Assembly: GCA_043744215.1 (NCBI GenBank)
Contig: JAYTVC010000014.1
Span: 16,932-80,931 of the forward strand
Reading direction: 5' to 3'
Length of the DNA stretch: 64,000 nt
From: Pseudomonadota bacterium
GTDB taxonomy: Bacteria > Pseudomonadota > Gammaproteobacteria > Burkholderiales > JBEEJL01
In this document: piece by piece, positions 402 to 61,520 of the stretch
Position numbering within the stretch: the first letter of the stretch is position 1
Layout: each line of letters starts with the position of its first letter
Translations under genes and position numbers: made by a program
Notes under the pieces: generated by a model
Told to the model about the DNA's origin: nothing
Databases searched by the model: none
The model's input: the letters and a program-made list of their open reading frames with translations, nothing else

Positions 402-1160
402 TTACTGCGTAAGGCCTGCACGGCAGATCGCAATGAATTCATCGGCAACCAGCGATGCCCCGCCAATCAGCCCGCCGTCCACATCCGGCAAAGACAGTAA
501 TTGTGCCGCATTTGACGCTTTTACGCTACCCCCGTAGAGGATCGGCAGGCTTTGCGCGATGCTTTTATCCAGCGTATTGATGCGCTTACGGATAAACTCA
601 TGCACCGCCTGCGCCTCCTGCGGCGTCGCCGTTTTGCCCGTACCGATGGCCCACACCGGTTCATAGGCCACTACCGCTTTTGAGAACGCGGCAACGCCCG
701 CAAGTTCGAGTACTTTATCCAACTGCCGCGCCACCACTTGTTCGGTCAAACCCGCCTGGCGCTCGTCCAAGGTTTCGCCCACACACAAAATCGGCGTCAA
801 ATTCGCTGCGAGTGCCGCCTGAAATTTCGCCGCAACGACAGCGTCATCCTCCCCAAACAGCGCGCGTCGTTCCGAATGGCCGACGATCACATAGCTGCAA
901 CCGAAATCCTTCAGCATGGCGGCGGAGACTTCGCCAGTGAACGCACCCTTGGCGTGCTGGCTCATATTCTGCGCACCCCAAGCTATGCTGGTTCCTTGCA
1001 ACAAATTTTGCACCTGCGCCAGATACGGAAACGGTACACACACCGCGCACGAAGCAGATTTCTCCTCACCCAAATCGGCTAGCACAGCGTGCAAGAGTTT
1101 CTGGTTTTCGGCCAGCGAACCATGCATTTTCCAATTGCCAACGACGAGTTTTTTTCTCAT
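402..1160 (-). CDS. tpiA: Triosephosphate isomerase
   Basis: 252-aa ORF with TIM hallmarks VVGNWKMHGS, VIVGHSERR and AYEPVWAIGTG. Confidence 0.95.
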   Translation of the reverse strand: MRKKLVVGNWKMHGSLAENQKLLHAVLADLGEEKSASCAVCVPFPYLAQVQNLLQGTSIAWGAQNMSQHAKGAFTGEVSAAMLKDFGCSYVIVGHSERRALFGEDDAVVAAKFQAALAANLTPILCVGETLDERQAGLTEQVVARQLDKVLELAGVAAFSKAVVAYEPVWAIGTGKTATPQEAQAVHEFIRKRINTLDKSIAQSLPILYGGSVKASNAAQLLSLPDVDGGLIGGASLVADEFIAICRAGLTQ

Positions 1161-2054: not shown

Positions 2055-2615
2055 TCATTCACCATAAACCTCCTTCTCTTCGCCCATAGCTTCAAACTCT
2101 GATGTGCCTGCCCAATGCGAAGGATAAATTCCCCGCTCAACATATTTATGGAAGGTGGAATACGGCCAATCGGCAACCCGTGAAACATGTTTATGTTTTA
2201 CTGGATTGAAATGAAGGTAATCGGCATGGCGTTGATAATCAAGCTCGTCGCGGATTTGGTGTTCCCAAAAACGGCGCTGCCAAAACCTTGATTCATTTCT
2301 TTTGATGCGGGATTCGCTTTTGGGTGATGTAAGCTGAACGAGATGCTCGCATTGTTTGCTGACCGTGCGTTTAATCAAAGACCAGCGGATGCCGAAATTG
2401 GCATCGTCTTCGGGCAAGGTCCAAATACAGTGAAGATGATCGGGCAGTAATACCCAGGCGTCGATGATAAAAGGATGCTTTGTTCTCGCGAGGTTGATAC
2501 CTAGGCGCAATGCGTTGCGCACTTCCGCCTGAGTGAGTAAGGCTTGGCGACAGTAGGTATTGACGGTGAAAAAGTAGGTGCCGCCTTGTACCTTGGATCT
2601 GCGGTATTCAGACAT
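2055..2615 (-). CDS. REP-associated tyrosine transposase (RAYT, IS200/IS605-like Y1/HUH)
   Basis: 186-aa ORF with the HUH motif in LLPDHLHCIW and a C-terminal Tyr region YLHFNPVKH. Family A REP copies lie within ~20 nt of both gene ends. Confidence 0.85.
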   Translation of the reverse strand: MSEYRRSKVQGGTYFFTVNTYCRQALLTQAEVRNALRLGINLARTKHPFIIDAWVLLPDHLHCIWTLPEDDANFGIRWSLIKRTVSKQCEHLVQLTSPKSESRIKRNESRFWQRRFWEHQIRDELDYQRHADYLHFNPVKHKHVSRVADWPYSTFHKYVERGIYPSHWAGTSEFEAMGEEKEVYGE

Positions 2616-5052: not shown

Positions 5053-6954
5053 TTACGTTTCTTGCGCAGGGTTGGCGGTGGCCGTCGGCGCGGTAGGCGC
5101 ATCACCCGGCGGTTTTGCCTGCGTCGAGGCTGGCGGTTTGGGCGGACGCGGTTGCCGGCCTTGCATGATGTCCTGAATCTGTTCTGCGTCGATGGTTTCC
5201 CATTCGAGCAGCGTCGCGGTCATCAGCTCCACTTTATCGCGGTTTTCTTCCAGCAATTTGCGACCCAGTGCATATTGCGTGTCGATAATGCGGCGGATTT
5301 CGCTGTCGATTTTTTCAAGCGTCGCTTCGGACATGTTGCGATGGGTGGTGACCGAGCGCCCGAGAAAAACCTCGCCTTCATTTTCACCATACACCATCGG
5401 GCCCAAGGCATCGGACATGCCATAGCGCGTAACCATGTCGCGCGCTACTTGTGTTGCGCGCTCGAAGTCGTTTGATGCACCCGTCGAAACATTGCCGACA
5501 AATAATTCTTCCGCGATGCGGCCACCGAACAACATACAGATCTGCGCGAGCATCTGGTCTTTGTAGAGGCTGAAACGATCCATTTCCGGCAACGACCACG
5601 TTACGCCTAACGCACGTCCGCGAGGAATAACCGTGACTTTATGCACCGGATCGCAACCGGGCAGCAGCGAACCGATGATGGCGTGGCCCGACTCGTGGTA
5701 AGCGGTTTTCTTTTTGTCTTCCGGCGTGATGACCATCGACTTGCGTTCCGCGCCCATGAAAATTTTATCTTTGGCGCGCTCGAAATCTTCCATGTCCACC
5801 AGGCGCTTGTTGGCGCGCGCGGCGAACAGCGCGGCTTCGTTCACCAAGTTGGCCAGATCAGCACCAGACATGCCTGGCGTGCCGCGCGCGATGATGTCGG
5901 CCTTCACGTCGCTGGAAATCGGCACCTTGCGCATATGCACCATGAGGATTTGCTCGCGGCCGCGGATGTCGGGCAGAGGAACCACCACTTGGCGATCGAA
6001 TCGGCCCGGACGCAACAACGCGGGGTCGAGCACATCGGGGCGGTTGGTTGCGGCGATAACAATCACGCCGACCGAACCTTCGAAGCCGTCCATCTCTACC
6101 AATAATTGATTCAGTGTTTGTTCGCGCTCATCGTTACCGCCGCCCAAACCTGCGCCGCGCTGGCGGCCTACGGCGTCGATTTCGTCAATGAAAATAATGC
6201 ACGGCGCGCTCTTCTTTGCCTGCTCGAACATGTCGCGCACACGGGCTGCGCCAACGCCGACGAACATTTCAACAAAATCGGAACCGGAAATGGAAAAGAA
6301 CGGCACTTTGGCCTCGCCGGCAATGGCGCGCGCGAGCAAGGTTTTACCGGTGCCGGGGTTGCCGACCATCAACACACCACGGGGAATGCGTCCGCCGAGC
6401 TTTTGGAATTTCGTTGGGTCGCGCAGAAAATCGACTATCTCGGAGACTTCTTCTTTGGCTTCTTCCACGCCCGCCACATCGGCGAAGGTGACAGGATTGG
6501 CGTTTTCATCCAGCATGCGCGCGCGGCTTTTGCCGAACGAAAACGCGCCGCCTTTGCCGCCGCCCTGCATCTGGCGCATGAAAAAAACCCAGACGCCGAT
6601 CAGCAATAACATGGGGAACCAGTTGAGCAACATTTCAAATAACACCGAGCGCTCTTCTTCTGGCTGGGCGGCCACTTGCACATTGTATTTGAGCAAATCG
6701 CTCACCAGCCACGGGTCGAACGGCGCGTAGGTGGTGTAATTACGTTTGTCATTCGTGGTGACTTTGAGTGTGCGCGAAAGCAAGCGGCCATCCATCGCCA
6801 CTTTTTCAACTTGGCCGGCACGTACCTGTTCCATGAATTGCGAGTATTCGACCGTGTTCGATGCAGTCTGCTGGGCACCGTATTGCTTGATGACCATTAA
6901 CAGAACTAGGCCGATGATGAGCCAGATGCCTACATTTTTTACTATATTATTCAA
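5053..6954 (-). CDS. ftsH: ATP-dependent zinc metalloprotease FtsH
   Basis: Walker A GNPGTGKT and zinc site HESGH. The track ORF extends to 6984; a TTG at 6954 preceded by AAGAGG gives the typical N-terminus [11 protein letters not shown]. The exact start is uncertain. Confidence 0.93.
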
Positions 6955-7044
6955 TGGGTTACCTCTTTGCGTGTGAATCGCCAAATTGCATATGAACTAT
7001 TGTAGCGCGAAACGCGGCGCTTGCCGAACAGCGTGTGACAAGCC

Positions 7045-7662
7045 TTATTTCTTGTCCTTGCCGAGTAAATACACTTCGTTGCTGCGGTCGCGGGAGGCAT
7101 CGGGCTTTCGAGTGGCGATACTGGCAAATTCCTTGAGCAAAATTTTGTAATATTCATCGAAGCCTTCGCCCTGAAACGTTTTGACCAGAAATGCACCGCC
7201 CGGTTTCAAATGCTCGATGGTAAATTCAAGCGCCAGCTCGCACAGCGCCATACTGCGCGCCTGATCCGACAGCGGTATGCCACTAATATTGGGGGCCATA
7301 TCGGAAAGTACAAGGTCCACCGGCTTGCTCATGAGCAAAGTTTTTAACGCGGCCAGGCCATCGTCGCTGGCAAAATCTGCCTGTAAGAAAGTGACGCCCT
7401 GCAGTGGCGCCATATCAATCAAATCAATGGCAATCACGCGGCCATTGCCTTTCATGCGCTCGGCCGCCACCTGCGACCAGCCGCCGGGCGTAGCCCCCAG
7501 ATCGACGATCGTCATGCCGGGCTTGATCAGCTTATCGCGCGCGTCAATTTCCATCAGCTTATACGCGGCGCGGGAGCGATAGCCTTCGCGCTTGGCGCGC
7601 TGCACGAACGGGTCGTTAATATGTTCACGCATCCAGCCTTTGCTGGTTCGGGTGGGTTTCAT
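7045..7662 (-). CDS. rlmE: 23S rRNA (uridine2552-2'-O)-methyltransferase RlmE/FtsJ
   Basis: 205 aa with SAM motif [12 protein letters not shown]. It lies upstream of ftsH, as is usual. Confidence 0.93.
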
Positions 7663-7979
7663 TAATGCGCTGAAGTCGCGCGATGCACAACTGGACGAAT
7701 CTTCGGCGCAAGCTGAGGCTCAAGCTCGCGCTTAGCCATACGCAGATCATAACTACACTGCAAATTTACCCAGAACTCGGTTGTCATATCAAAATAAAGA
7801 CCGAGACGCACAGCAGTGTCCATAGTTATCGGCCTGCCGTTTTTGGTAATGTCGGTGATACGGCTCGGCGGTACATCAATATCTCGCGCCAGCTGGCTAG
7901 GCGTAATACCCATAGGCTCAAGAAAATCCTTGAGTAGAATTTCGCCCGGTACAATTTCGGGTAATAATTTTTTAGCCAT
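7662..7979 (-). CDS. higA: HigA-family antitoxin (XRE HTH)
   Basis: 105 aa. [34 protein letters not shown]...[11 protein letters not shown] matches the HigA addiction-module antidote pattern. It lies downstream of the toxin. Confidence 0.85.
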
Positions 7980-7995
7980 TATATTTCTCCATCAC

Positions 7996-8274
7996 TCAGT
8001 GATAATCCACGATTTCAACGTTATAAACGCCATCGTCTTTCCAAACAAAACACACACGCCATTGATCATTAACGCGAATACTGTGCTGACCTTTACGCTT
8101 GGATTTCAATGCTTCAAGCCGATTACCCGGCGGCACCTTCAAATCATCAAGCCGGGCGGCAGCATCAAGTTGAAGTAACTTTCGTCTAGCGACAGATTCA
8201 ATATTTTTGAAGCGCCGCACATCGACGCTATGAAATAACGCTTCGGTGTCTGGGCAGGCGAAAGATCGAATCAT
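7996..8274 (-). CDS. higB: HigB-family toxin (RelE/ParE superfamily, plasmid maintenance killer type)
   Basis: 92 aa. MIRSF...LDAAARLDDLKVPPGNRLEALKSKRKGQHSIRVNDQWRVCFVWKDDGVYNVEIVDYH is the characteristic HigB layout. Confidence 0.85.
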   Translation of the reverse strand: MIRSFACPDTEALFHSVDVRRFKNIESVARRKLLQLDAAARLDDLKVPPGNRLEALKSKRKGQHSIRVNDQWRVCFVWKDDGVYNVEIVDYH

Positions 8275-8286
8275 GATAATATTTTA

Positions 8287-8301
8287 TTCTGCGCGACAGA
8301 A
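8287..8301. promoter_or_regulatory. Palindrome upstream of higB (candidate operator)
   Basis: TTCTGcgcgaCAGAA lies 13 nt upstream of the higB start, in an AT-rich promoter region. Confidence 0.3.
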
Positions 8302-8404
8302 TATGTCAAACAGAACAAATAATAGAAACTTTAAGGTTTTCGGGAACAAAGCCTGGCTTGCCCGTATAATCAAGATTGATTAACTAATGCTTTTGAAAGT
8401 CCTT

Positions 8405-8962
8405 ATGCTCACCATCACCATCGAAAAACGCCGCGCGCTTCGCGCCGAAGCCCACGCACTCAAACCCATTGTGATGATCGGTAACGCCGGCCTCACCGAT
8501 GCCGTCATCAAAGAAATTGAAAACGCGCTTACCAACCATGAGCTGATGAAAATCCGCGTCTTCAGCGACGAAAAAGACGCCCGCGAAACCATTTTGCAGG
8601 CCATTTGCGAGCGCATCGGTGCAGCGCCGATACAGCACATTGGCAAAATTCTGGTGATTTACAAACCGTCGGAAAAAATCGCCGAGGCAAAAAAAATCGC
8701 CGCAAAAAAAACCGGCACGGCAAAAGCAAGCCCATCGCGCCGACCGCGCAGCGTCGCCAAAACGGCCAGCGGAAAAAAATGGACGGCGCGAGACTCGGCA
8801 GCCGTGCATGCCACAGTGCGCAATGCGGCTGCGCGCGGTGAACCAATCGAAAAAGAATTTGATGCGGCGGACCCCGGCAACAAAAAACGCCGCTTCGCTA
8901 CCGGCTCGGGCTCAACCATCAAGCACGGCGGTTTAAGCGTGCGGCGCAAACGCACGACGTGA
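8405..8962 (+). CDS. yhbY: RNA-binding CRM-domain protein YhbY with long basic C-terminal extension
   Basis: The first ~95 aa (LKPIVMIGNAGLTDAVIKEIENALTNHELMKIRV...) match YhbY. The remaining ~90 aa are K/R/A-rich. The track ORF starts at 8387; ATG 8405 fits YhbY length better. Confidence 0.8.
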   Translation: MLTITIEKRRALRAEAHALKPIVMIGNAGLTDAVIKEIENALTNHELMKIRVFSDEKDARETILQAICERIGAAPIQHIGKILVIYKPSEKIAEAKKIAAKKTGTAKASPSRRPRSVAKTASGKKWTARDSAAVHATVRNAAARGEPIEKEFDAADPGNKKRRFATGSGSTIKHGGLSVRRKRTT

Positions 8963-8983
8963 TTTTCAGCATCGTCACGAAAT

Positions 8984-9010
8984 AAAAAAGGCGCGTCATG
9001 CGCCTTTTTT
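8984..9010. terminator. Bidirectional intrinsic terminator
   Basis: A-tract, then GGCGCG-tca-TGCGCC, then T6. Confidence 0.75.
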
Positions 9011-9018
9011 ATTATTCG

Positions 9019-9045
9019 GTAACTATTTGATTTTATTCATATTTT
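9019..9045 (-). repeat. AT-rich IHF-core motif (copy b)
   Basis: Reverse complement is AAAATATGAATAAAATCAAATAGTTAC. It overlaps the stop of the greA 3' fragment. Confidence 0.7.
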
Positions 9046-9122
9046 ATGTCGATGATTTCATATTCGCGCACTCCGCCGGGTGCCTGCACTTCGGCGACGT
9101 CTCCGGGATATTTGCCAATCAG
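9033..9122 (-). pseudogene. Orphan 3' end of greA (last 29 codons + stop)
   Basis: Encodes LIGKYPGDVAEVQAPGGVREYEIIDIKYE*. It is collinear with 9579-9668 of intact greA: 9 differences in the stop-proximal 45 nt, mostly synonymous, and none in the other 45 nt. Confidence 0.85.
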
Positions 9123-9127
9123 TTTTC

Positions 9128-9193
9128 GTAGGGTGGGCACCGCCCACCGCAAGGCAGGTAATCGAGGGCTCTGGTGGGCAGTGCCCACGCTAC
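9128..9193. repeat. Inverted REP doublet, family B (GTAG + GGTGGGC/GCCCACC hairpin)
   Basis: GTAGGGTGGGCACCGCCCACC at 9128-9148 and the inverse GGTGGGCAGTGCCCACGCTAC at 9173-9193. A third copy is at 48841. Confidence 0.75.
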
Positions 9194-9244
9194 AAATTCA
9201 ACCCGTCCTGAGCAAGCTCAGTATATCAATTACGCCACCGACTT

Positions 9245-9569
9245 CCCCATCTGCGCCGACGATTATTTGCTGAAGGCGAGGGAGCCGTCCGCGAGCAATG
9301 TTTGAGCCACGCGCTGTTTCAGTTTTGAAATGAAGACGAAAGCGAGTTTTGCTCGCGGCCCTCGCCTTCAGCAAATAATCGGCGACATCAAAAACCAAAA
9401 ACAAAAAGCAGCGCGGCGGGCGTCGCCTTTTTTGGTTACTTTATTTGGCGAAGCAAAAAAGTGACTTGCCGCCGGGCAACCCCCGGCAATGTGTTGAAGA
9501 CCGCTGAAGCTCAACGCTCCGCGTCAGGTAACGGCGCAAAAAACCGCGCCGCAACCTGACCTACTAGGC
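9245..9569. repeat. Unclassified structured repeat element, copy 1
   Basis: Aligns end to end with 49217-49542. It has a long central hairpin (9255-9386), a GC hairpin plus T6 (9415-9433), and further hairpins at 9466-9489 and 9523-9560. It ends 9 nt from the greA stop. Confidence 0.7.
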
Positions 9570-9578
9570 TATATGTTT

Positions 9579-10054
9579 TCATTCATACTTCACATCAATA
9601 ATTTCATACTCGCGCACGCCGCCGGGTGCCTGCACTTCGGCGACGTCTCCGGGATATTTGCCAATCAGCGCGCGTGAAAGCGGCGAGCTGATGGAAATTT
9701 TTCCGAGTTTGATGTCGGCTTCATCTTCACCCACGATTTGGTAAGTAACATTTTCTTTGCTGCCCAAATCCTGCAGATCAATGGTCGCACCGAACACGCA
9801 CGCGCCATCGGCATCCAGTAATTTAGGGTTGATGATTTGCGCATTGCCGAGCTTGCCTTCAAGATCCTGGATGCGGCCTTCAATAAAACTTTGCCGCTCT
9901 TTCGCCGCTTCGTACTCGGCGTTTTCCGACAGATCGCCTTGCGCGCGCGCTTCCTGAATCGCGGTGATCACGCTCGGCCGCTCAACGGTTTTGAGTTTAT
10001 GCAATTCGGCTTTCATTAAATCGGCGCCGACAATGGTTAACGGAATTTTTGCCA

Positions 10055-10055
<1 letters not shown>
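9579..10055 (-). CDS. greA: Transcription elongation factor GreA
   Basis: 158 aa with the GreA coiled-coil N-terminus (GDLSENAEYEAAKE) and C-terminal domain. Its start overlaps the carB stop (TGATG). Confidence 0.95.
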
Positions 10056-18208: not shown

Positions 18209-18610
18209 ATGACTGTTGATTTTCGTTTGCTGCTGCGCTCACTGCTGCTTGCCACCACGCTTATAGTTGTATGCGGCCAGGCGTCAGCGTATGAAGCGCC
18301 CTCGGGGCTGCGCAAATTATTCGGCTCCTCCGACAGCGCCACCCTAACCGTCAGCCAGCTTCCCGGTGAAGCGCAAGACACGCTCAAGCTGATCAAACAA
18401 AAGGGGCCCTTCCCTTATAGCCGCGATGGCGTCGTATTCAGCAACCGCGAAAAACGCCTGCCCAAACAAGCGCGCGGCTATTATCATGAATACACCGTCA
18501 AAACCCCCGGCGCGCGCAATCGCGGCGCGCGGCGCATCATCGCCGGCAACGCCGGCGAATACTATTACACCGACGACCATTACGATTCCTTCAAACAGAT
18601 TAAGGAGTAA
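18209..18610 (+). CDS. Secreted guanyl-specific ribonuclease (barnase/RNase Sa family)
   Basis: 133 aa with a signal peptide. YYHEYTVKTPGARNRGARRIIAG...YYYTDDHYDSFKQI matches the microbial RNase catalytic core. Confidence 0.8.
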   Translation: MTVDFRLLLRSLLLATTLIVVCGQASAYEAPSGLRKLFGSSDSATLTVSQLPGEAQDTLKLIKQKGPFPYSRDGVVFSNREKRLPKQARGYYHEYTVKTPGARNRGARRIIAGNAGEYYYTDDHYDSFKQIKE

Positions 18611-18613
18611 GCC

Positions 18614-19051
18614 TTGAAGACGCTGAAATCTTTATTGGCAGAAAAAAAACACGGCGGCGTATATCAACTCACCTCCGCCGCCGCCCATTCTGAAATTGAA
18701 AAAGCCGCCAAGGCCGCGAAGTTCGCCTACTTCCACATCGAAGGCAAAAAGATCGAGAAAAAAGAACAATTTCTCAATCACGCCTCCGTCGCCATGCACT
18801 TCCCCGAATATTTTGGCGACAACTGGGATGCGTTCGAAGATTGCCTCACCGACCTCTCATGGCAAGATGCGCCGGGTTACGTGATTCTGTTCGACCACTA
18901 CGACGCCATGGCCGCCCACGCCCACGGCCAATTCGAAACCGCGCTGGAAGTATTCCAAAGCGCAGTTGAATTCTGGGAAGAACAAAGCAAAGTCATGATC
19001 GTATTACTGCGAGGCAAACCGTTACTGGAAGATGTTGAAAAAATCGGTTGA
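18614..19051 (+). CDS. Barstar-family RNase inhibitor
   Basis: 145 aa with a TTG start 7 nt after AGGAG. The NWDAFEDCLTDLSW motif is barstar-like. It starts 4 nt after the RNase stop. Confidence 0.75.
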   Translation: MKTLKSLLAEKKHGGVYQLTSAAAHSEIEKAAKAAKFAYFHIEGKKIEKKEQFLNHASVAMHFPEYFGDNWDAFEDCLTDLSWQDAPGYVILFDHYDAMAAHAHGQFETALEVFQSAVEFWEEQSKVMIVLLRGKPLLEDVEKIG

Positions 19052-25628: not shown

Positions 25629-25667
25629 CCCCATCCCCACCCTGACCCTGGCCTTGAAGGCGAGGGG
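25629..25667. repeat. REP-like repeat family E
   Basis: CCCCATCCCCACCCTGACCCTGGCCTTGAAGGCGAGGGG. The related copy CCCATCCCCACCCTGGCCCTCCCCTTGAAAGGGAGGG is at 49020-49056. Confidence 0.6.
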
Positions 25668-25710
25668 ATTTTCTCTTTTCAATTAATCCCACCGGCAAAT
25701 ATTAATGCCA

Positions 25711-48754: not shown

Positions 48755-48840
48755 GGTGTAGGTTCGTGATTTTCGCAGTGCTGATTATAAACTGAATAAA
48801 AATTTGGTCGCTTGGTACGAGCAGCGATAGCTACGTTTTG

Positions 48841-49113
48841 GTAGGGTGGGCATTGCCCACCGCAAGGCCGGTAAACACGCCTGTAGAATTAATTGTCATA
48901 CAGCGGACGTTTCAGAAGACTTGTTGGGGTTTGTGCCTCACCCCAACCAACGCAAGTTTTGGTTGAAAATACATGGCCGGGGGAGCCCGGTAAGGTTTAC
49001 GACATCATCCAAACTTAAACCCATCCCCACCCTGGCCCTCCCCTTGAAAGGGAGGGACTTTCTTTCTTCGCTAATACCTATCGTAGGATGGGCAAAGCGA
49101 CAGCGTGCCCATC
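48841..49113. repeat. Cluster of REP-like repeats (families B, D, E, C)
   Basis: Family B GTAGGGTGGGCATTGCCCACC (48841-48861); family D GTTGGGGTTTGTGCCTCACCCCAAC (48923-48947, inverse copy at 61600-61624); family E (49020-49056); family C GTAGGATGGGCAAAGCGACAGCGTGCCCATC (49083-49113). Confidence 0.7.
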
Positions 49114-49165
49114 ACCAAAACAAAAATGCTTTTCAACAAAATATTTTTTGACGTGTTGTTGACTG

Positions 49166-49210
49166 GCTTTTGATGTTGCTTTTGATGTTGCTTTTGATTT
49201 GCTTTTGACC
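49166..49210 (+). repeat. Tandem ~12-bp repeats (GCTTTTGATGTT x2 plus 2 degenerate units)
   Basis: Four head-to-tail units directly 5' of structured element copy 2. They are roughly the inverse complement of the CATCAAAAACCAAAATCAAAAAAGC tract at 49358-49382. Confidence 0.7.
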
Positions 49211-49216
49211 TGGCAT

Positions 49217-49542
49217 CCCCATCTGCGCCGCCGAAATTGCGCTGGGCATGCGGGAGCCGTCGGCGAGCAATGTTTGAGCCACGCGCAGATTCAGTTCTGA
49301 GATGAAGGCGAAGGCGAGTTTTGCTCGACCGCCCGCTTGCCCAGCGCCATTTCGGCGACATCAAAAACCAAAATCAAAAAAGCAGCGCAGCGGGCGTCGC
49401 CTTTTTTGGTTACTTTTTTGGCGAAGCAAAAAAGTGACTTGCCGCCGGGCAACCCCCGGCAATGTATCAAAGACCGCTGATGATCCAGGCTCCGCGTCAG
49501 GTAACGGCGCGAAAAGCCTCGCCGCAACCTGACCTACTAGGC
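49217..49542. repeat. Unclassified structured repeat element, copy 2
   Basis: Aligns with 9245-9569. Central hairpin arms at 49227-49254 and 49332-49359. It ends 15 nt from the stop of the HExxH ORF. Confidence 0.7.
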
Positions 49543-49557
49543 CGACCTTATGTTTGC

Positions 49558-50109
49558 TTACCTGGGCACGCATTGTTCAGAAAGTTTACGCAGGTCAGCC
49601 TGTCCACAAGCTGGAAACAAAACAAATAATTGCTCAAACGTAACAGCACTCAAACTACCAAACCTGCCACGAATAAGCTTTGCAGAAGAAAAGGTTCCTC
49701 CTGGAAGTGAACGAACCATATTGAGAGCTTCGAAATATGGGCCAGAAGTTGGGCTTTGAATGGGAATGTCAAAAAGCGTTTGTGCATGAATAGAAAATTC
49801 GACCGCTACACCTTCTTCAAGCCAATTCGCGTAGCCCACTATCGGATTTAATAGGTGAATAATCTCGTGTGCCATTTCATAAACCACTGTTGGCCAAAAT
49901 ACTTTGCTGTTGGGCCCGAGCTCAATAAAAGCGCCATCTAGCTCAGGCGTGTTGCGGATATGCGGTCCGTTCTCATGAAAGGCTGGCGGATAAATTTTTT
50001 TTGATAAGTCACGTTGACCAACAAGTCGCTGAGCCTCATCAAGCAATTGATTTTGTAGCTGCCAAAGGCCTTTTTGATCATGTTCTGGGATGGAGGTCGG
50101 TAAGTTCAA
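49558..50109 (-). CDS. Hypothetical HExxH zinc-metallopeptidase-like protein (peptidase MA-like motif)
   Basis: 183 aa. YEMAHEIIHLLNPIVGYANWLEEGVAVEF fits HExxH...W.EG of MA-clan-like domains. TTG start. It looks more AT-rich than its neighbours. Confidence 0.5.
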   Translation of the reverse strand: MNLPTSIPEHDQKGLWQLQNQLLDEAQRLVGQRDLSKKIYPPAFHENGPHIRNTPELDGAFIELGPNSKVFWPTVVYEMAHEIIHLLNPIVGYANWLEEGVAVEFSIHAQTLFDIPIQSPTSGPYFEALNMVRSLPGGTFSSAKLIRGRFGSLSAVTFEQLFVLFPACGQADLRKLSEQCVPR

Positions 50110-51911: not shown

Positions 51912-52706
51912 ATGCTCACCCACCCGCAATTTGATCCCGTCGCCGTACAACTCGGCCCCCTCGCCATCCGCTGGTACGGCTTGATGTATGTGCTGGCCTT
52001 CGCCATGTTTTGGTTTATGGGGCGCTATCGCATTCGCAAAAACGCCAGCGGCGATTTTAACGAAACGCAATTAGAAGACATGCTGTTTTACGGCGTGCTC
52101 GGCGTGATTCTTGGCGGGCGATTGGGGTATGTTTTGTTTTACAAATTCTCGTACTACCTCGCGCACCCGCTGGAAATTTTTATGGTGTGGCAGGGCGGCA
52201 TGTCGTTTCACGGTGGATTCCTCGGCGTATTTTTTGCCATGTGGTGGTTTGCGCGCAAAAGTGGCAAGCACTGGATGCAAGTCACCGATTTTGTGACGCC
52301 GCTCGTGCCGCTCGGTTATGCGGCCGGGCGGATGGGAAATTTTATCAACGGCGAATTGCCCGGACGCATCACCGATGTGCCATGGGGTATGTGGTTTCCG
52401 CAGGTGGATAAACTGCAAACCATTCGCCACCCGTCGCAGCTTTATCAATTCGCGTTGGACGGCGTGTGCCTGTTTATCATAATGTGGCTGTTCTCGCGCA
52501 AACCGCGACCGATGGGCGCGGTGTCGGGATTATTTTTGATCGGCTACGGCACATTTCGCATCATCACCGAATTCGCGCGCGAACCGGACGACTTTCTCGG
52601 CTTTCTCGCGCTCGGATTATCGATGGGGCAATGGTTGAGCGTGCCGATGATGATTGCCGGCATCGCGATGATGGTGTGGGCGTATCGCGCGGGGCGTGAG
52701 GCGTGA
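51912..52706 (+). CDS. lgt: Prolipoprotein diacylglyceryl transferase
   Basis: 264 aa. IRWYGLMY and [11 protein letters not shown] motifs. The last codons and the stop lie in the heptamer array. Confidence 0.93.
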
Positions 52707-52839
52707 GGCGTGAGGCGTGAGGCGTGAGGCGTGAGGCGTGAGGCGTTAGGCGTTAGGCGTTAGGCGTTAGGCGTTAGGCGCTAGGCGCTAGGCGCTAGGC
52801 GTTAGGCGTTAGGCGTTAGGCGTTAGGCGTTAGGCGTTT
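52693..52839 (+). repeat. Heptanucleotide tandem array, 21 units in 4 blocks
   Basis: GGCGTGA x7, GGCGTTA x5, GGCGCTA x3, GGCGTTA x5, plus one GGCGTTT. That is 147 bp with no gaps. Confidence 0.95.
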
Positions 52840-52924: not shown

Positions 52925-53000
<76 letters not shown>

Positions 53001-59103: not shown

Positions 59104-60570
59104 TTGCTATCAGTTGTTGAACAAACCCGTTTGAAAGTGTCAGAACGAACCGACGCGAAGAAGAAATCGCTGCTCGGGCAATTTCTTACGCCTGCAAACA
59201 CGGCCTCATTCATGGCAGGGCTTTTCCCCGCGTCAAGCGGTGAATGCAGTCTGCTGGATGCTGGGGCGGGGATTGGCTCTCTATCGAGCGCATTTCTTGA
59301 AACGTGCGTAACTGGAAAACTAAACTTCAAAAAAATACATCTAAAAGCATTTGAGCTTGATGATTCCATACATGGCGAACTTCAGCACTGTCTTTCTTCT
59401 TATCTTCAAAAATGCAATTTCTCATTTGAAGTGATTGGAAATGATTTTATAGAGGAAGCAGTTAATACAATTCAATTTCAAAAATACAATTTCACCCACG
59501 CGATACTGAATCCGCCTTACAAAAAAATCGGAAGCAATTCAAGTTACCGCTTGCTTCTTCGTGAGGCCGGAATTGAAACCGTCAATCTTTATTCCGCCTT
59601 TGTGGCGCTGGCCGTGGCAATGGCAGCACCAGGCGGACAGGTCGTGGCGATCATTCCGCGGAGCTTCTGCAATGGGCCGTATTATCGCCCGTTCCGTGAC
59701 TTCATCCTTGAGCGTGCAGCCATCCGGCACATGCACTTGTTCGGATCCCGTAGCAAGGCATTCAAAGATGATGAAGTTCTGCAAGAGAACATCATCATTC
59801 GGCTAGAGTGTGGCGGCCAGCAAGGACCGGTAACGGTTTCCACATCAACGGACGACAACTTTTTAGACCTTGAAACCTATGAACACCAGTTCGACCGAAT
59901 AGTGTTCCCGGACGACTCCGAGCGGTTTATTCATGTGCCTATTTTGGCCGAAACATCCACCGCGTTATCCCCGATCATTCGTCATACGCTAACCGATCTT
60001 GGCATCAAGGTTTCGACAGGGCCGGTAGTCGATTTTCGACTGAAAGAGCATCTACGCGACATGCCAGAACTCGGCACTGCTCCCTTGCTTTACCCCGGTC
60101 ATTTCAGCAGCAACGCCACAACCTGGCCGCAAGCTGGCATGAAGAAGCCGAACGCGATCCTGCGCAACAGTGATACCGAAAAATGGTTGTATCCAAACGG
60201 CTATTATTGCGTGGTACGCCGCTTTTCATCGAAGGAAGAAAAGCGGCGGGTAGTGGCGGGCGTGGTTGCCCCTGATTCATTTGACGGTGCGACCATGTTG
60301 GGCTTCGAGAACCATCTAAATCTGTTCCATGAAAACAAACGTGGCTTGCCGCAAGCGTTGGCGCGTGGGCTTGCCGTATTCCTGAATTCGACCATCGTTG
60401 ACGACAATTTCAGGCGGTTTAGCGGGCATACGCAGGTCAACGCAACCGACCTCAAACAGATAAAGTACCCAAGTCGCGCCGCCCTGATTGAGCTTGGAGA
60501 ATGGGCGATGCAACAAGGCGAACTCACGCAAACACTGATTGATAGCAAGTTACGAACTCTCACCGCATGA
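59104..60570 (+). CDS. N6-adenine DNA methyltransferase (gamma-class, Eco57I/PstI-type M subunit)
   Basis: 488 aa. Motif I LDAGAGIGSL precedes motif IV ILNPPYKK. The TTG start is 7 nt after AGGAGG. Confidence 0.8.
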   Translation: MLSVVEQTRLKVSERTDAKKKSLLGQFLTPANTASFMAGLFPASSGECSLLDAGAGIGSLSSAFLETCVTGKLNFKKIHLKAFELDDSIHGELQHCLSSYLQKCNFSFEVIGNDFIEEAVNTIQFQKYNFTHAILNPPYKKIGSNSSYRLLLREAGIETVNLYSAFVALAVAMAAPGGQVVAIIPRSFCNGPYYRPFRDFILERAAIRHMHLFGSRSKAFKDDEVLQENIIIRLECGGQQGPVTVSTSTDDNFLDLETYEHQFDRIVFPDDSERFIHVPILAETSTALSPIIRHTLTDLGIKVSTGPVVDFRLKEHLRDMPELGTAPLLYPGHFSSNATTWPQAGMKKPNAILRNSDTEKWLYPNGYYCVVRRFSSKEEKRRVVAGVVAPDSFDGATMLGFENHLNLFHENKRGLPQALARGLAVFLNSTIVDDNFRRFSGHTQVNATDLKQIKYPSRAALIELGEWAMQQGELTQTLIDSKLRTLTA

Positions 60571-61520
60571 ACAACAAGAATGATTACATTGAGGCCGCTC
60601 ACCAGATCATTATTTCTTTGGGCCTGCCTCGGGCGCAACAGAACGAGCGTACCGCCCTTTGCCTGCTGGCTTTATTGAACCTCACGCCGGGCTCGGCGTG
60701 GGCTGATGCGCAAAATCCACTTGTCGGCATCACCCCAATCATGGATTGGGCTCGGGAACACTACGACAAGGAATATGCGCCGAACACACGAGAGACAATC
60801 CGCCGTCAGACCATGCACCAGTTCTGCGATGCCGGGATTGCGTTGTACAACCCGGACAAACCAGACCGCCCGGTGAATAGCCCGAAGACGGTCTATCAGG
60901 TTGAATCTGCTGCGTTGGCCTTGCTACGCACCTTTGGCTCGCCCATGTGGCATGACGGCCTTGCGACTTATTTGGCCAAGCGTGAAACGCTGATTGTCCG
61001 CTATGCAATGGAGCGAGAGCAAAGTCGCATCCCGGTTGAGATCGCGCTGGGGAAGGAAATCACCCTCAGTCCCGGCGAGCATAGCGAATTGATCCGAGCC
61101 ATCATTGCGGACTTTGCCCCGCGCTTCGCGCCGGGGAGCGTTCTGGTCTATGTCGGCGACACGGGCGAGAAGTGGGGTTACTTCGATGCGCCCTTACTGG
61201 CTGCGTTGGGTGTCGATGTGGATTCACACGGCAAGATGCCGGATGTGGTGCTGCACTTCACCGCGAATAACTGGTTGCTACTGGTCGAGTCTGTCACCAG
61301 TCACGGCCCCGTCGATGGCAAACGACACACCGAGCTGGCAAAACTTTTTGCTGGATCAACTGCTGGGCTAGTCTATGTGACTGCCTTCCCGAACCGGGCG
61401 ATCATGAGCCGCTACCTAGGCGAAATCGCATGGGAAACGGAGGTGTGGGTAGCTGATGCACCGTCCCATCTGATCCACTTTAATGGCATCCGTTTCCTTG
61501 GACCGTACAATGCGCCCTAA
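60567..61520 (+). CDS. Type II restriction endonuclease, BsuBI/PstI-family-like
   Basis: 317 aa. The C-terminal core MPDVVLHF...WLLLVESVTSHGPV...YVTAFPNR...IAWETEVWVADAPSHLIHFNGIRFLGPY matches my recollection of the BsuBI/PstI RE family (PD...ExV/K-type). ATGA overlap with the methylase gene. Confidence 0.6.
   Translation: MNNKNDYIEAAHQIIISLGLPRAQQNERTALCLLALLNLTPGSAWADAQNPLVGITPIMDWAREHYDKEYAPNTRETIRRQTMHQFCDAGIALYNPDKPDRPVNSPKTVYQVESAALALLRTFGSPMWHDGLATYLAKRETLIVRYAMEREQSRIPVEIALGKEITLSPGEHSELIRAIIADFAPRFAPGSVLVYVGDTGEKWGYFDAPLLAALGVDVDSHGKMPDVVLHFTANNWLLLVESVTSHGPVDGKRHTELAKLFAGSTAGLVYVTAFPNRAIMSRYLGEIAWETEVWVADAPSHLIHFNGIRFLGPYNAP

Follow-up and report, generated by a model that had tools for sequence, protein, structure and literature searches.

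A second copy of the greA 3′ end

We analysed a stretch of 64,000 nucleotides from a Pseudomonadota bacterium (Gammaproteobacteria, Burkholderiales; contig JAYTVC010000014.1 of assembly GCA_043744215.1, positions 16,932 to 80,931), hereafter the window, in which the 3′ end of the gene greA is present twice, once as part of the intact gene and once as an orphan copy downstream of it. The intact greA coding sequence, identified in the list of open reading frames (ORFs), occupies positions 9579..10055 on the minus strand, and its 158-aa product is a 100% match to protein P0001 and matches thousands of GreA homologs with the PF01272 and PF03449 domains. Convergent with greA, on the plus strand, lies a yhbY-like gene (8387..8962) that encodes a CRS1_YhbY domain and a basic C-terminal tail. 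A repeat search identified a 100-nt direct repeat with 89% identity (11 differences) and a spacing of 546 nt. The gene-side copy (9569..9668, minus strand) comprises the last 29 greA codons, a TGA stop and 10 nt past the stop; the orphan copy (9023..9122, minus strand) comprises 29 codons, a TAA stop and 10 nt, with its coding-like part at 9033-9122. This is the single long direct-repeat family that the search returned for the greA region, and a self-BLAST of the window shows it as the sole gene-end duplicate in the 64 kb (E = 1e-28). A preliminary description, made from the sequence alone, had placed two 90-nt segments at 9033-9122 and 9579-9668; these coordinates are correct, and the homology reaches 10 nt beyond the stop, which gives the 100-nt repeat.

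Translated on the greA strand, either copy gives LIGKYPGDVAEVQAPGGVREYEIID[V/I]KYE*. The reading frame of the orphan is intact and free of indels, and no promoter-like site was found for the orphan. A map of the mismatches shows that the half of the repeat that is farther from the stop codon is a block of 50 identical nucleotides. The gene-side block (9619..9668, minus strand) adjoins the body of greA, whereas the outer edge of the orphan-side block (9073..9122, minus strand) is a non-homologous junction, 9122|9123, with a repetitive extragenic palindromic (REP) unit. At this junction, where the REP edge meets codon 129, at most 1 nt of sequence is shared. The nine differences that had been described between the 90-nt segments, all of them near the stop, are present as stated, but the identical stretch is 50 nt long (9073-9122 = 9619-9668) and not 45.

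At 8981..9013, 20 nt from the orphan, a perfect 14-bp inverted repeat flanked on either side by A/T runs forms a bidirectional terminator common to yhbY and the orphan, and thus formerly to greA. The orphan also retains the post-stop motif AAATCAAATAGTTA, which is found in the related contigs L111-L118 as well. Because this motif is kept in full at the orphan, as in the relatives, and with the yhbY terminator adjoining, the orphan is the copy in the ancestral context, as had been proposed.

Mosaic divergence of the two gene ends

All 11 differences between the copies fall within the stop-proximal half of the repeat, nine of them in the 90 coding nucleotides and two past the stop. Of the nine coding differences, seven affect third codon positions, one affects a first position and gives Val in the gene but Ile in the orphan, and one distinguishes the stops (TGA in the gene, TAA in the orphan), in agreement with the earlier account of mostly third-position differences plus a stop change and one Ile/Val change. 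Comparison of the two halves with greA of related species shows a mosaic. In the 45 nt nearest to the greA body (the proximal part), the copies are identical to each other at 45/45 positions and to the relatives at only 36-38/45. In the remaining 55 nt (the distal part: 45 coding and 10 post-stop nucleotides), the copies match each other at 44/55 positions, and four of five relatives match the gene copy at 45-48/55 and the orphan at 45-46/55; the fifth, L110, is further from both copies than the other relatives are (40 matches to the gene copy, 34 to the orphan). By this measure, each distal half is about as distant from the other as from greA of other species, a pattern that suggests that both evolved under coding constraint, in separate lineages.

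When the differences are polarised against five outgroups, six changes are specific to the orphan, five of these at third positions, and one to three are specific to the gene copy. An excess of this size among the orphan-specific changes has p of about 0.018 if the orphan was drifting freely. For the full set of differences, the probability of at least seven third-position changes among nine is 0.008 if both copies were drifting, and 0.09-0.38 if only the orphan drifted and the gene copy was under selection. The orphan carries two rare codons (GGA and ATA), and its Ile stands at a position where 114 of 116 homologs have Val. The case for two constrained lineages is therefore weaker than first stated, because p = 0.008 holds only if both copies are unconstrained, and because of the rare codons and the Ile. 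The preliminary claim that both ends evolved as functional greA termini in different lineages is thus upheld in part: the halves are diverged to the level of species and five of the six orphan-specific changes are at third positions, but the third-position bias alone is no proof of two functional lineages. Codon usage was not decisive in telling a native from a foreign end, and gene-by-gene identity to the relatives gave no signal of an imported yhbY side, with all genes 79-83% identical.

Insert between the two copies

The 446 nt between the copies consist of a REP doublet, a spacer and a structured element, and hold no credible gene. The inverted, REPIN-like doublet (REPINs being paired REP units; 9123..9195, plus strand) is built of GTAG and a GGTGGGCA..CCCAC hairpin, with units at 9128-9147 (plus) and 9174-9193 (minus). 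It is followed by a 48-nt spacer (9196..9243) with a small hairpin (CTGAGCAAGCTCAG) that has no copy elsewhere, and by a structured non-coding element of 326 nt (9244..9569, minus strand) that starts right after the greA post-stop nucleotides. This element has three parts: a long hairpin with arms at 9257-9282 and 9359-9384, a module (9408-9490) that is widely conserved and carries terminator-like hairpins on either strand, and a lineage-specific terminal hairpin (9491-9569). Its folding z-scores relative to shuffled sequences are −9.1 for the minus strand and −7.0 for the plus strand. The REP doublet, the structured element and the absence of a recombinase from an insert of about 0.45 kb had all been noted in the preliminary description, and all were borne out.

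Among the 58 window ORFs that were tested, none had a Pfam match to a recombinase, transposase, REP-associated tyrosine transposase (RAYT) or reverse transcriptase, and an exact-protein look-up returned no record for a 68-aa ORF inside the insert. Rfam gave nothing credible at E ≤ 5 in 8950-9700, and across the window only tRNAs passed. Plasmids contained no match to the insert in a distant-mode BLAST; a 26-mer from the core had 0 matches in viral contigs and 0 in metagenome contigs, and a degenerate pattern of the greA end had 0 matches in metagenome contigs. The hairpin arms of the element, considered as guides or spacers, matched nothing else in the window with up to 3 mismatches allowed, and nothing in viral contigs. 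The insert has no terminal inverted repeats, and its edges are the natural edges of ordinary dispersed repeats. It is likely that greA now ends in a new 3′ untranslated region (UTR) with its own terminator, the orphan lying beyond, because the conserved module carries terminator-like hairpins on both strands.

The greA locus in relatives and in an independent contig

The best GreA homologs outside the source share 89-92% of the protein sequence and about 81% of the DNA sequence, and an exact look-up of the full-length GreA protein returned no record in the indexed assemblies. The contigs of the relatives (L110-L114 and L116-L118) have a single greA end, with no orphan and no such insert. In some of these contigs, a DUF559 endonuclease gene and a hypothetical gene stand between greA and yhbY; in others, SnoaL and dehydrogenase genes come next. 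As the following genes differ among relatives, the spot behind greA is variable. No remnants of the DUF559 or hypothetical genes were found at greA in the source. All relatives except L110 share the post-stop motif TAAAA[T/A]CA[A/T]ATAGTTA. The homology of the gene copy ends at ...ATATAG, where the structured element begins, whereas the orphan has the full motif and runs on into ...ATAGTTA, as the relatives do. The comparison of the greA-yhbY region that had been proposed as a check thus revealed a single greA end and variable content, but the relatives, at about 81% DNA identity, are too distant to be true empty-site controls.

In some relatives the DUF559 gene, which encodes a Vsr-like endonuclease, is intact. 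It stands after the greA motif in L110 (3125-3268, a 47-aa fragment), in L114 (3597-3968) and in L116-L118, and it is preceded in the relatives by a repeat of the CCCCTCCCCTTCAAGGGGAGGG type. Insertion behind greA seems to be recurrent.

An independent assembly contains the orphan side of the locus. The Logan contig L115 (SRR23617271) is 100% identical to positions 6553-9102 of the window and agrees with it at 11 of the 11 orphan-specific variant positions. As it reproduces the orphan side base for base, the orphan variants are not random assembly errors, a possibility that the preliminary description had raised for the nine differences and that is hereby answered for the orphan side only. L115 extends up to, and not beyond, the last 31-mer that is still unique ahead of the block of identity. 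This shows that the block has two contexts in the SRR23617271 sample.

A second composite and a widespread repeat family

Both the structured element and the REP unit that flanks it have second copies in the window, so that the composite occurs twice. The second composite (48836..49542, plus strand) consists of a REP unit at 48836-48874, 341 nt of other repeats, and an element at 49216-49542 that is 87% identical to the element at 9244-9569. The REP unit boundary GTTTT[C/G]GTAGGGTGGGCA is common to the REP at the greA locus and to 48835-48874, and GTAG together with a GC-rich palindrome is present both at 9128-9193 and at 48841-48860, with no RAYT among the window ORFs tested. The two composites have the same outer ends and differ in their internal filler (82 nt at greA vs. 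341 nt). In both, the element starts shortly past the stop of a minus-strand gene, by 10 nt at greA and by 15 nt at the ORF 49558..50109. No orphan gene end is present at the second composite: the local alignment score was 14, where shuffled sequences averaged 15 and the greA control reached 145.

The filler at 48875-49215 is a patchwork of other small repeats. It includes a CCCTCCCCTTGAAAGGGAGGG hairpin that is also found at 25630-25671 and in relatives, a REP of another type (CGTAGGATGGGCAAAGCG...GCCCATCACC), and 3.7 tandem copies of a 12-nt unit (GCTTTTGATGTT). Beside the second element, in AT-rich surroundings, lies an ORF (49558-50109) for a product of 183 aa that contains a HEIIH motif, similar to HExxH, and matches no Pfam family; the gene is possibly an accessory one.

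A search of species-representative genomes with a 24-mer from the conserved module identified at least 109 stretches (L001-L109) with related elements. The hosts are mostly Betaproteobacteria and include Polaromonas, Thiobacillus, Sulfuriferula, Gallionella, Sideroxyarcus, Methylophilaceae and Hydrogenophilales; there are often many copies per genome, and many are near contig ends. Although family members share only about 70-140 nt with the window copy, they have a common architecture, with a long outer stem, a conserved internal part (TGTyTGAGC...GCGAGTT), a linker, and at the right end a two-hairpin module with a conserved 3′ terminus (...GTGACTTGCCGCCGGGCAACCCCCGGC). The outer stem is 10-37 bp long, and its arms differ entirely between copies and lineages yet remain complementary (in the window, CGACGATTATTTGCTGAAGGCGAGGG in the copy at 9244-9569 and CGCCGAAATTGCGCTGGGCATGCGGG in the copy at 49216-49542). 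No Rfam family was found for the element in the window or in 18 related loci, and a literature search with an 18-mer of the module returned 0 papers. Judged by its sequence and architecture, the structured element is a member of a widespread betaproteobacterial repeat family that is absent from Rfam. This family is possibly a more interesting lead than the greA duplicate and merits a separate study.

None of the 109 loci has long direct repeats or gene-end duplicates flanking the element, and no recurrent protein family was found beside the related repeats beyond spurious antisense ORFs. The duplication at greA is therefore a one-off and not the insertion signature of this family.

Origin of the duplicated gene end

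Every model of the locus requires one in-register junction and one non-homologous junction, the latter at the REP edge (9122|9123). We favour the reading, at about an even chance, that the greA duplicate is the scar of general recombination that joined gene ends of two ancestries, and not the work of a dedicated site-specific system; patchy recombination had been named in the preliminary description as an alternative. Several features of the locus are consistent with this reading: the register is held through the stop and the post-stop motif in both copies, as expected of an in-register junction; the other, non-homologous junction falls on the natural REP boundary that is also seen at 48835; the copies agree with each other at 45/45 proximal positions vs. 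44/55 distal ones; and the insert consists of ordinary repeats, the same composite being found behind another gene with no duplication. The reading is also favoured by the third-position bias of the orphan-specific changes, by the lack of a Pfam match to a recombinase, transposase or reverse transcriptase among the 58 ORFs tested, by the absence of gene-end duplicates at the 109 related loci and by the variable content behind greA in the relatives.

In the mechanism that we propose, recombination would have involved an empty, ancestral allele, with the greA end followed by the native terminator and yhbY, and a filled allele, in which the greA end was followed after 10-13 nt by the structured element and the REP doublet, the usual placement of these repeats behind genes here. 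One exchange would have taken place in homologous register within the greA end, and the second join, an illegitimate one, would coincide exactly with the REP unit's outer edge (9122|9123), the possible routes being homology-facilitated illegitimate recombination and a REP-associated unequal exchange. On this order of events, one of the two distal halves would be foreign and the other resident, and the displaced greA end would have been left behind as a silent orphan. The identical 50-nt block might be the part that was duplicated or exchanged in situ, or might be due to later gene conversion between the direct repeats. Throughout, greA would have stayed intact, gaining a new 3′ UTR in which the repeat module would supply terminator-like hairpins.

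Displaced gene ends are an already known kind of structure. Orphan 3′ fragments are documented to arise when a gene end is displaced through the combination of a homologous anchor with an illegitimate join (PMC5361080; PMC3240628). The greA locus resembles the ‘C-terminal displacement’ at type VI secretion system (T6SS) effector-immunity and rhs loci, where a homologous anchor is likewise combined with an illegitimate join and the old end is found downstream as an orphan (PMC5361080; PMC3240628). It differs in that the T6SS and rhs cases are polymorphic toxin genes under diversifying selection that exchange kilobase-sized modules, whereas greA is a housekeeping gene that gains only a Val/Ile change and a new 3′ UTR.

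Several points weigh against general recombination. No donor or empty-site genome was found, and with even the closest relatives at only about 81% DNA identity, the foreign ancestry would be deduced from just 55 nt. An identical 50-nt block beside a block that is 20% diverged does not result from any one simple recombination step, so that an extra step, gene conversion or sister-chromosome exchange, is needed to yield the mosaic. The rare codons (GGA, ATA) and the Ile at a near-invariant Val position of the orphan fit some drift after displacement, or an origin in situ. Finally, the topology, with the ORF restored, a block of identity at the junction and mostly silent differences beyond it, is exactly what a gene-end-targeting integrase leaves, as a control with the Escherichia coli prophage e14 shows.

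This last point leads to the explanation that the preliminary description had put forward, a site-specific integrating element, which we regard as unlikely. A recombinase would have integrated an element whose attP carried a greA end, so that the gene-side distal half and the insert would be DNA of the element and the orphan would be the original gene end; what is left would be a remnant that has since lost all its genes, or a miniature, non-autonomous composite moved in trans by a recombinase encoded elsewhere. The 100-nt direct repeats that flank the insert 546 nt apart, with greA intact at 158 aa, do have the topology of attL and attR: the frame is restored, the identical block stands at the non-homologous junction, most differences are silent, and the orphan keeps its native context. 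The same layout is found where e14 is integrated in icd, the prophage supplying a replacement gene end and the original end persisting as the C-terminal pseudogene icdC (PMC13626634). Measured in E. coli MG1655, the icd/icdC duplicate is 165 nt long with 12 differences, 11 of them at third positions, which are spread from position 12 to position 144, and the identical core beside the junction is only 11 nt. Thus, the greA locus is similar to e14 in its topology, in its silent-site bias and in an orphan that remains in the native context, but e14 is 15 kb long and carries intE and xisE, whereas the greA insert is 446 nt of repeats with no gene. Moreover, the differences in e14 are even along the whole duplicate beyond its 11-nt core, whereas greA has 50 identical nt next to 20% divergence in the rest of the duplicate, a combination that an integrase leaves unexplained as well.

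Gene-less segments of this general kind exist. The cis-mobilizable elements (CIMEs) known from work on ICESt1 and ICESt3 in Streptococcus thermophilus are flanked by att sites and have no recombination genes; they are kilobase-sized derivatives of integrative and conjugative elements (ICEs) that share the att sites and use the integrase of a resident ICE. Like them, the greA insert is a gene-less segment between attL/attR-like direct repeats at the 3′ end of a gene, but no ICE partner is visible at greA and the second composite has no att-like repeats. The finding of a composite with defined ends at two loci speaks for a mobile unit. Conversely, the 58 window ORFs tested include no match to an integrase or recombinase, the core has no attP-like match in viral or metagenome contigs, the insert has no plasmid match, and its edges are generic repeat ends that leave no room for element-specific arms. 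With no gene-end duplicate at the second composite (14 vs. 145 for greA) or at the 109 related loci, the claim of a site-specific integrating element is not supported by these comparisons. Its most specific form, in which the composite itself is a miniature gene-less integrative element moved in trans and forms at greA a 546-bp ‘mini-island’ with the greA terminus as its attP, appears quite improbable; if an integrative origin were true, gene-end-targeting integration would be extended to a sub-kilobase element devoid of genes.

A purely in-situ origin also strikes us as improbable. Here, an unequal exchange between sister chromosomes, or a template switch that joined at the REP, would have duplicated the gene end, after which the orphan would drift neutrally, the gene copy would change synonymously and gene conversion would maintain the proximal 50 nt. 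REP sequences occur at the join points of chromosomal duplications, and REPIN doublets are moved by RAYT transposases; at greA, the novel, non-homologous junction lies exactly at the edge of a unit of GTAG and hairpin within an inverted doublet. However, the greA locus is not a simple tandem duplication, which would also repeat the 446-nt body (the body is not repeated), and there is no RAYT among the window ORFs tested. The sequence of the orphan can be read both ways. Its unique changes outnumber those of the gene copy, it uses rare codons and has Ile at a site that is almost always Val, and with drift confined to the orphan the third-position excess lacks significance (p = 0.09-0.38), all of which would suit a decaying duplicate. 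Against such decay, five of the six orphan-specific changes are at third positions (p of about 0.018), and the frame is intact with no indels. The distal halves are as diverged as those of different species (44/55 vs. 45-48/55), so that a duplication in situ would need an age about equal to that of the species splits, yet six related contigs have a single greA end.

An assembly artefact, in which a single contig was pieced together from two strain variants, or from the chromosome and a small circle that both contain the 50-nt block, is very improbable. The source looks metagenome-derived, the full-length GreA has no record in the indexed assemblies, and L115 breaks exactly at the identical block, although the break tells no more than that the sample contains the block in two contexts. 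The orphan side is matched base for base in an independent assembly, and the junction 9122|9123 shares no k-mer with either simple allele; a mixture of strains alone cannot create the join of REP and codon 129, because reads must contain that junction.

Two further candidates were rejected. For a diversity-generating retroelement, 4 of the 11 differences are not at adenines of the orphan (three C/T and one T/A), and no reverse transcriptase match was found among the ORFs tested. For the target-site duplication of a transposon, the duplicate is 100 nt at 89% identity (vs. 2-14 identical bp), with no terminal inverted repeats on the insert, no transposase match among the ORFs tested and flanking duplicates at 0 of the 109 loci.

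Implications for the detection of islands

If general recombination is the true origin, the locus would be a clean, small example of displaced gene ends at a core housekeeping gene. Because scars of recombination mimic att sites, scans that detect islands from gene-end duplicates should require evidence of a recombinase or evidence from populations. An identical 50-nt repeat with a spacing of 546 nt is also a hazard in itself, in that it breaks short-read assemblies, as at the end of L115. Circles or empty sites would not prove site-specific excision, because 50-nt repeats can loop out by homologous recombination; a test for excision circles, as had been suggested, separates the models only when the positions of the crossovers are mapped. 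A literature search for greA as an attachment site was uninformative, as ‘grea’ matched words such as ‘great’.

Other features of the window

On the far side of yhbY, between yhbY and rlmE, we identified a higB/higA toxin-antitoxin pair (7662-8274) with a HigB-like toxin (7996..8274) and a helix-turn-helix antitoxin (7662..7979), the stop of which overlaps the start of rlmE. As yhbY and rlmE (FtsJ) are directly adjacent in L110 and L114, this pair is another lineage-specific insertion in a conserved neighbourhood. Elsewhere, the window encodes a barnase-like ribonuclease (18209..18610) with a barstar inhibitor (18614..19051), and a type II restriction-modification pair that comprises an Eco57I-like methylase (59104..60570) and a BsuBI/PstI-type endonuclease (60567..61520). 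A tandem array of the heptamer GGCGTTA, with about 21 copies and 97% matches, lies at 52693-52838, between the 3′ end of lgt (51912..52706) and a tRNA at 52925. Between tpiA (402..1160) and the ORF 2055..2615, positions 1320-2043 hold clustered short repeats, both inverted and direct (1386-1416 and 1949-1979, for instance, are 100% identical over 31 nt), which probably form another REP-like array.

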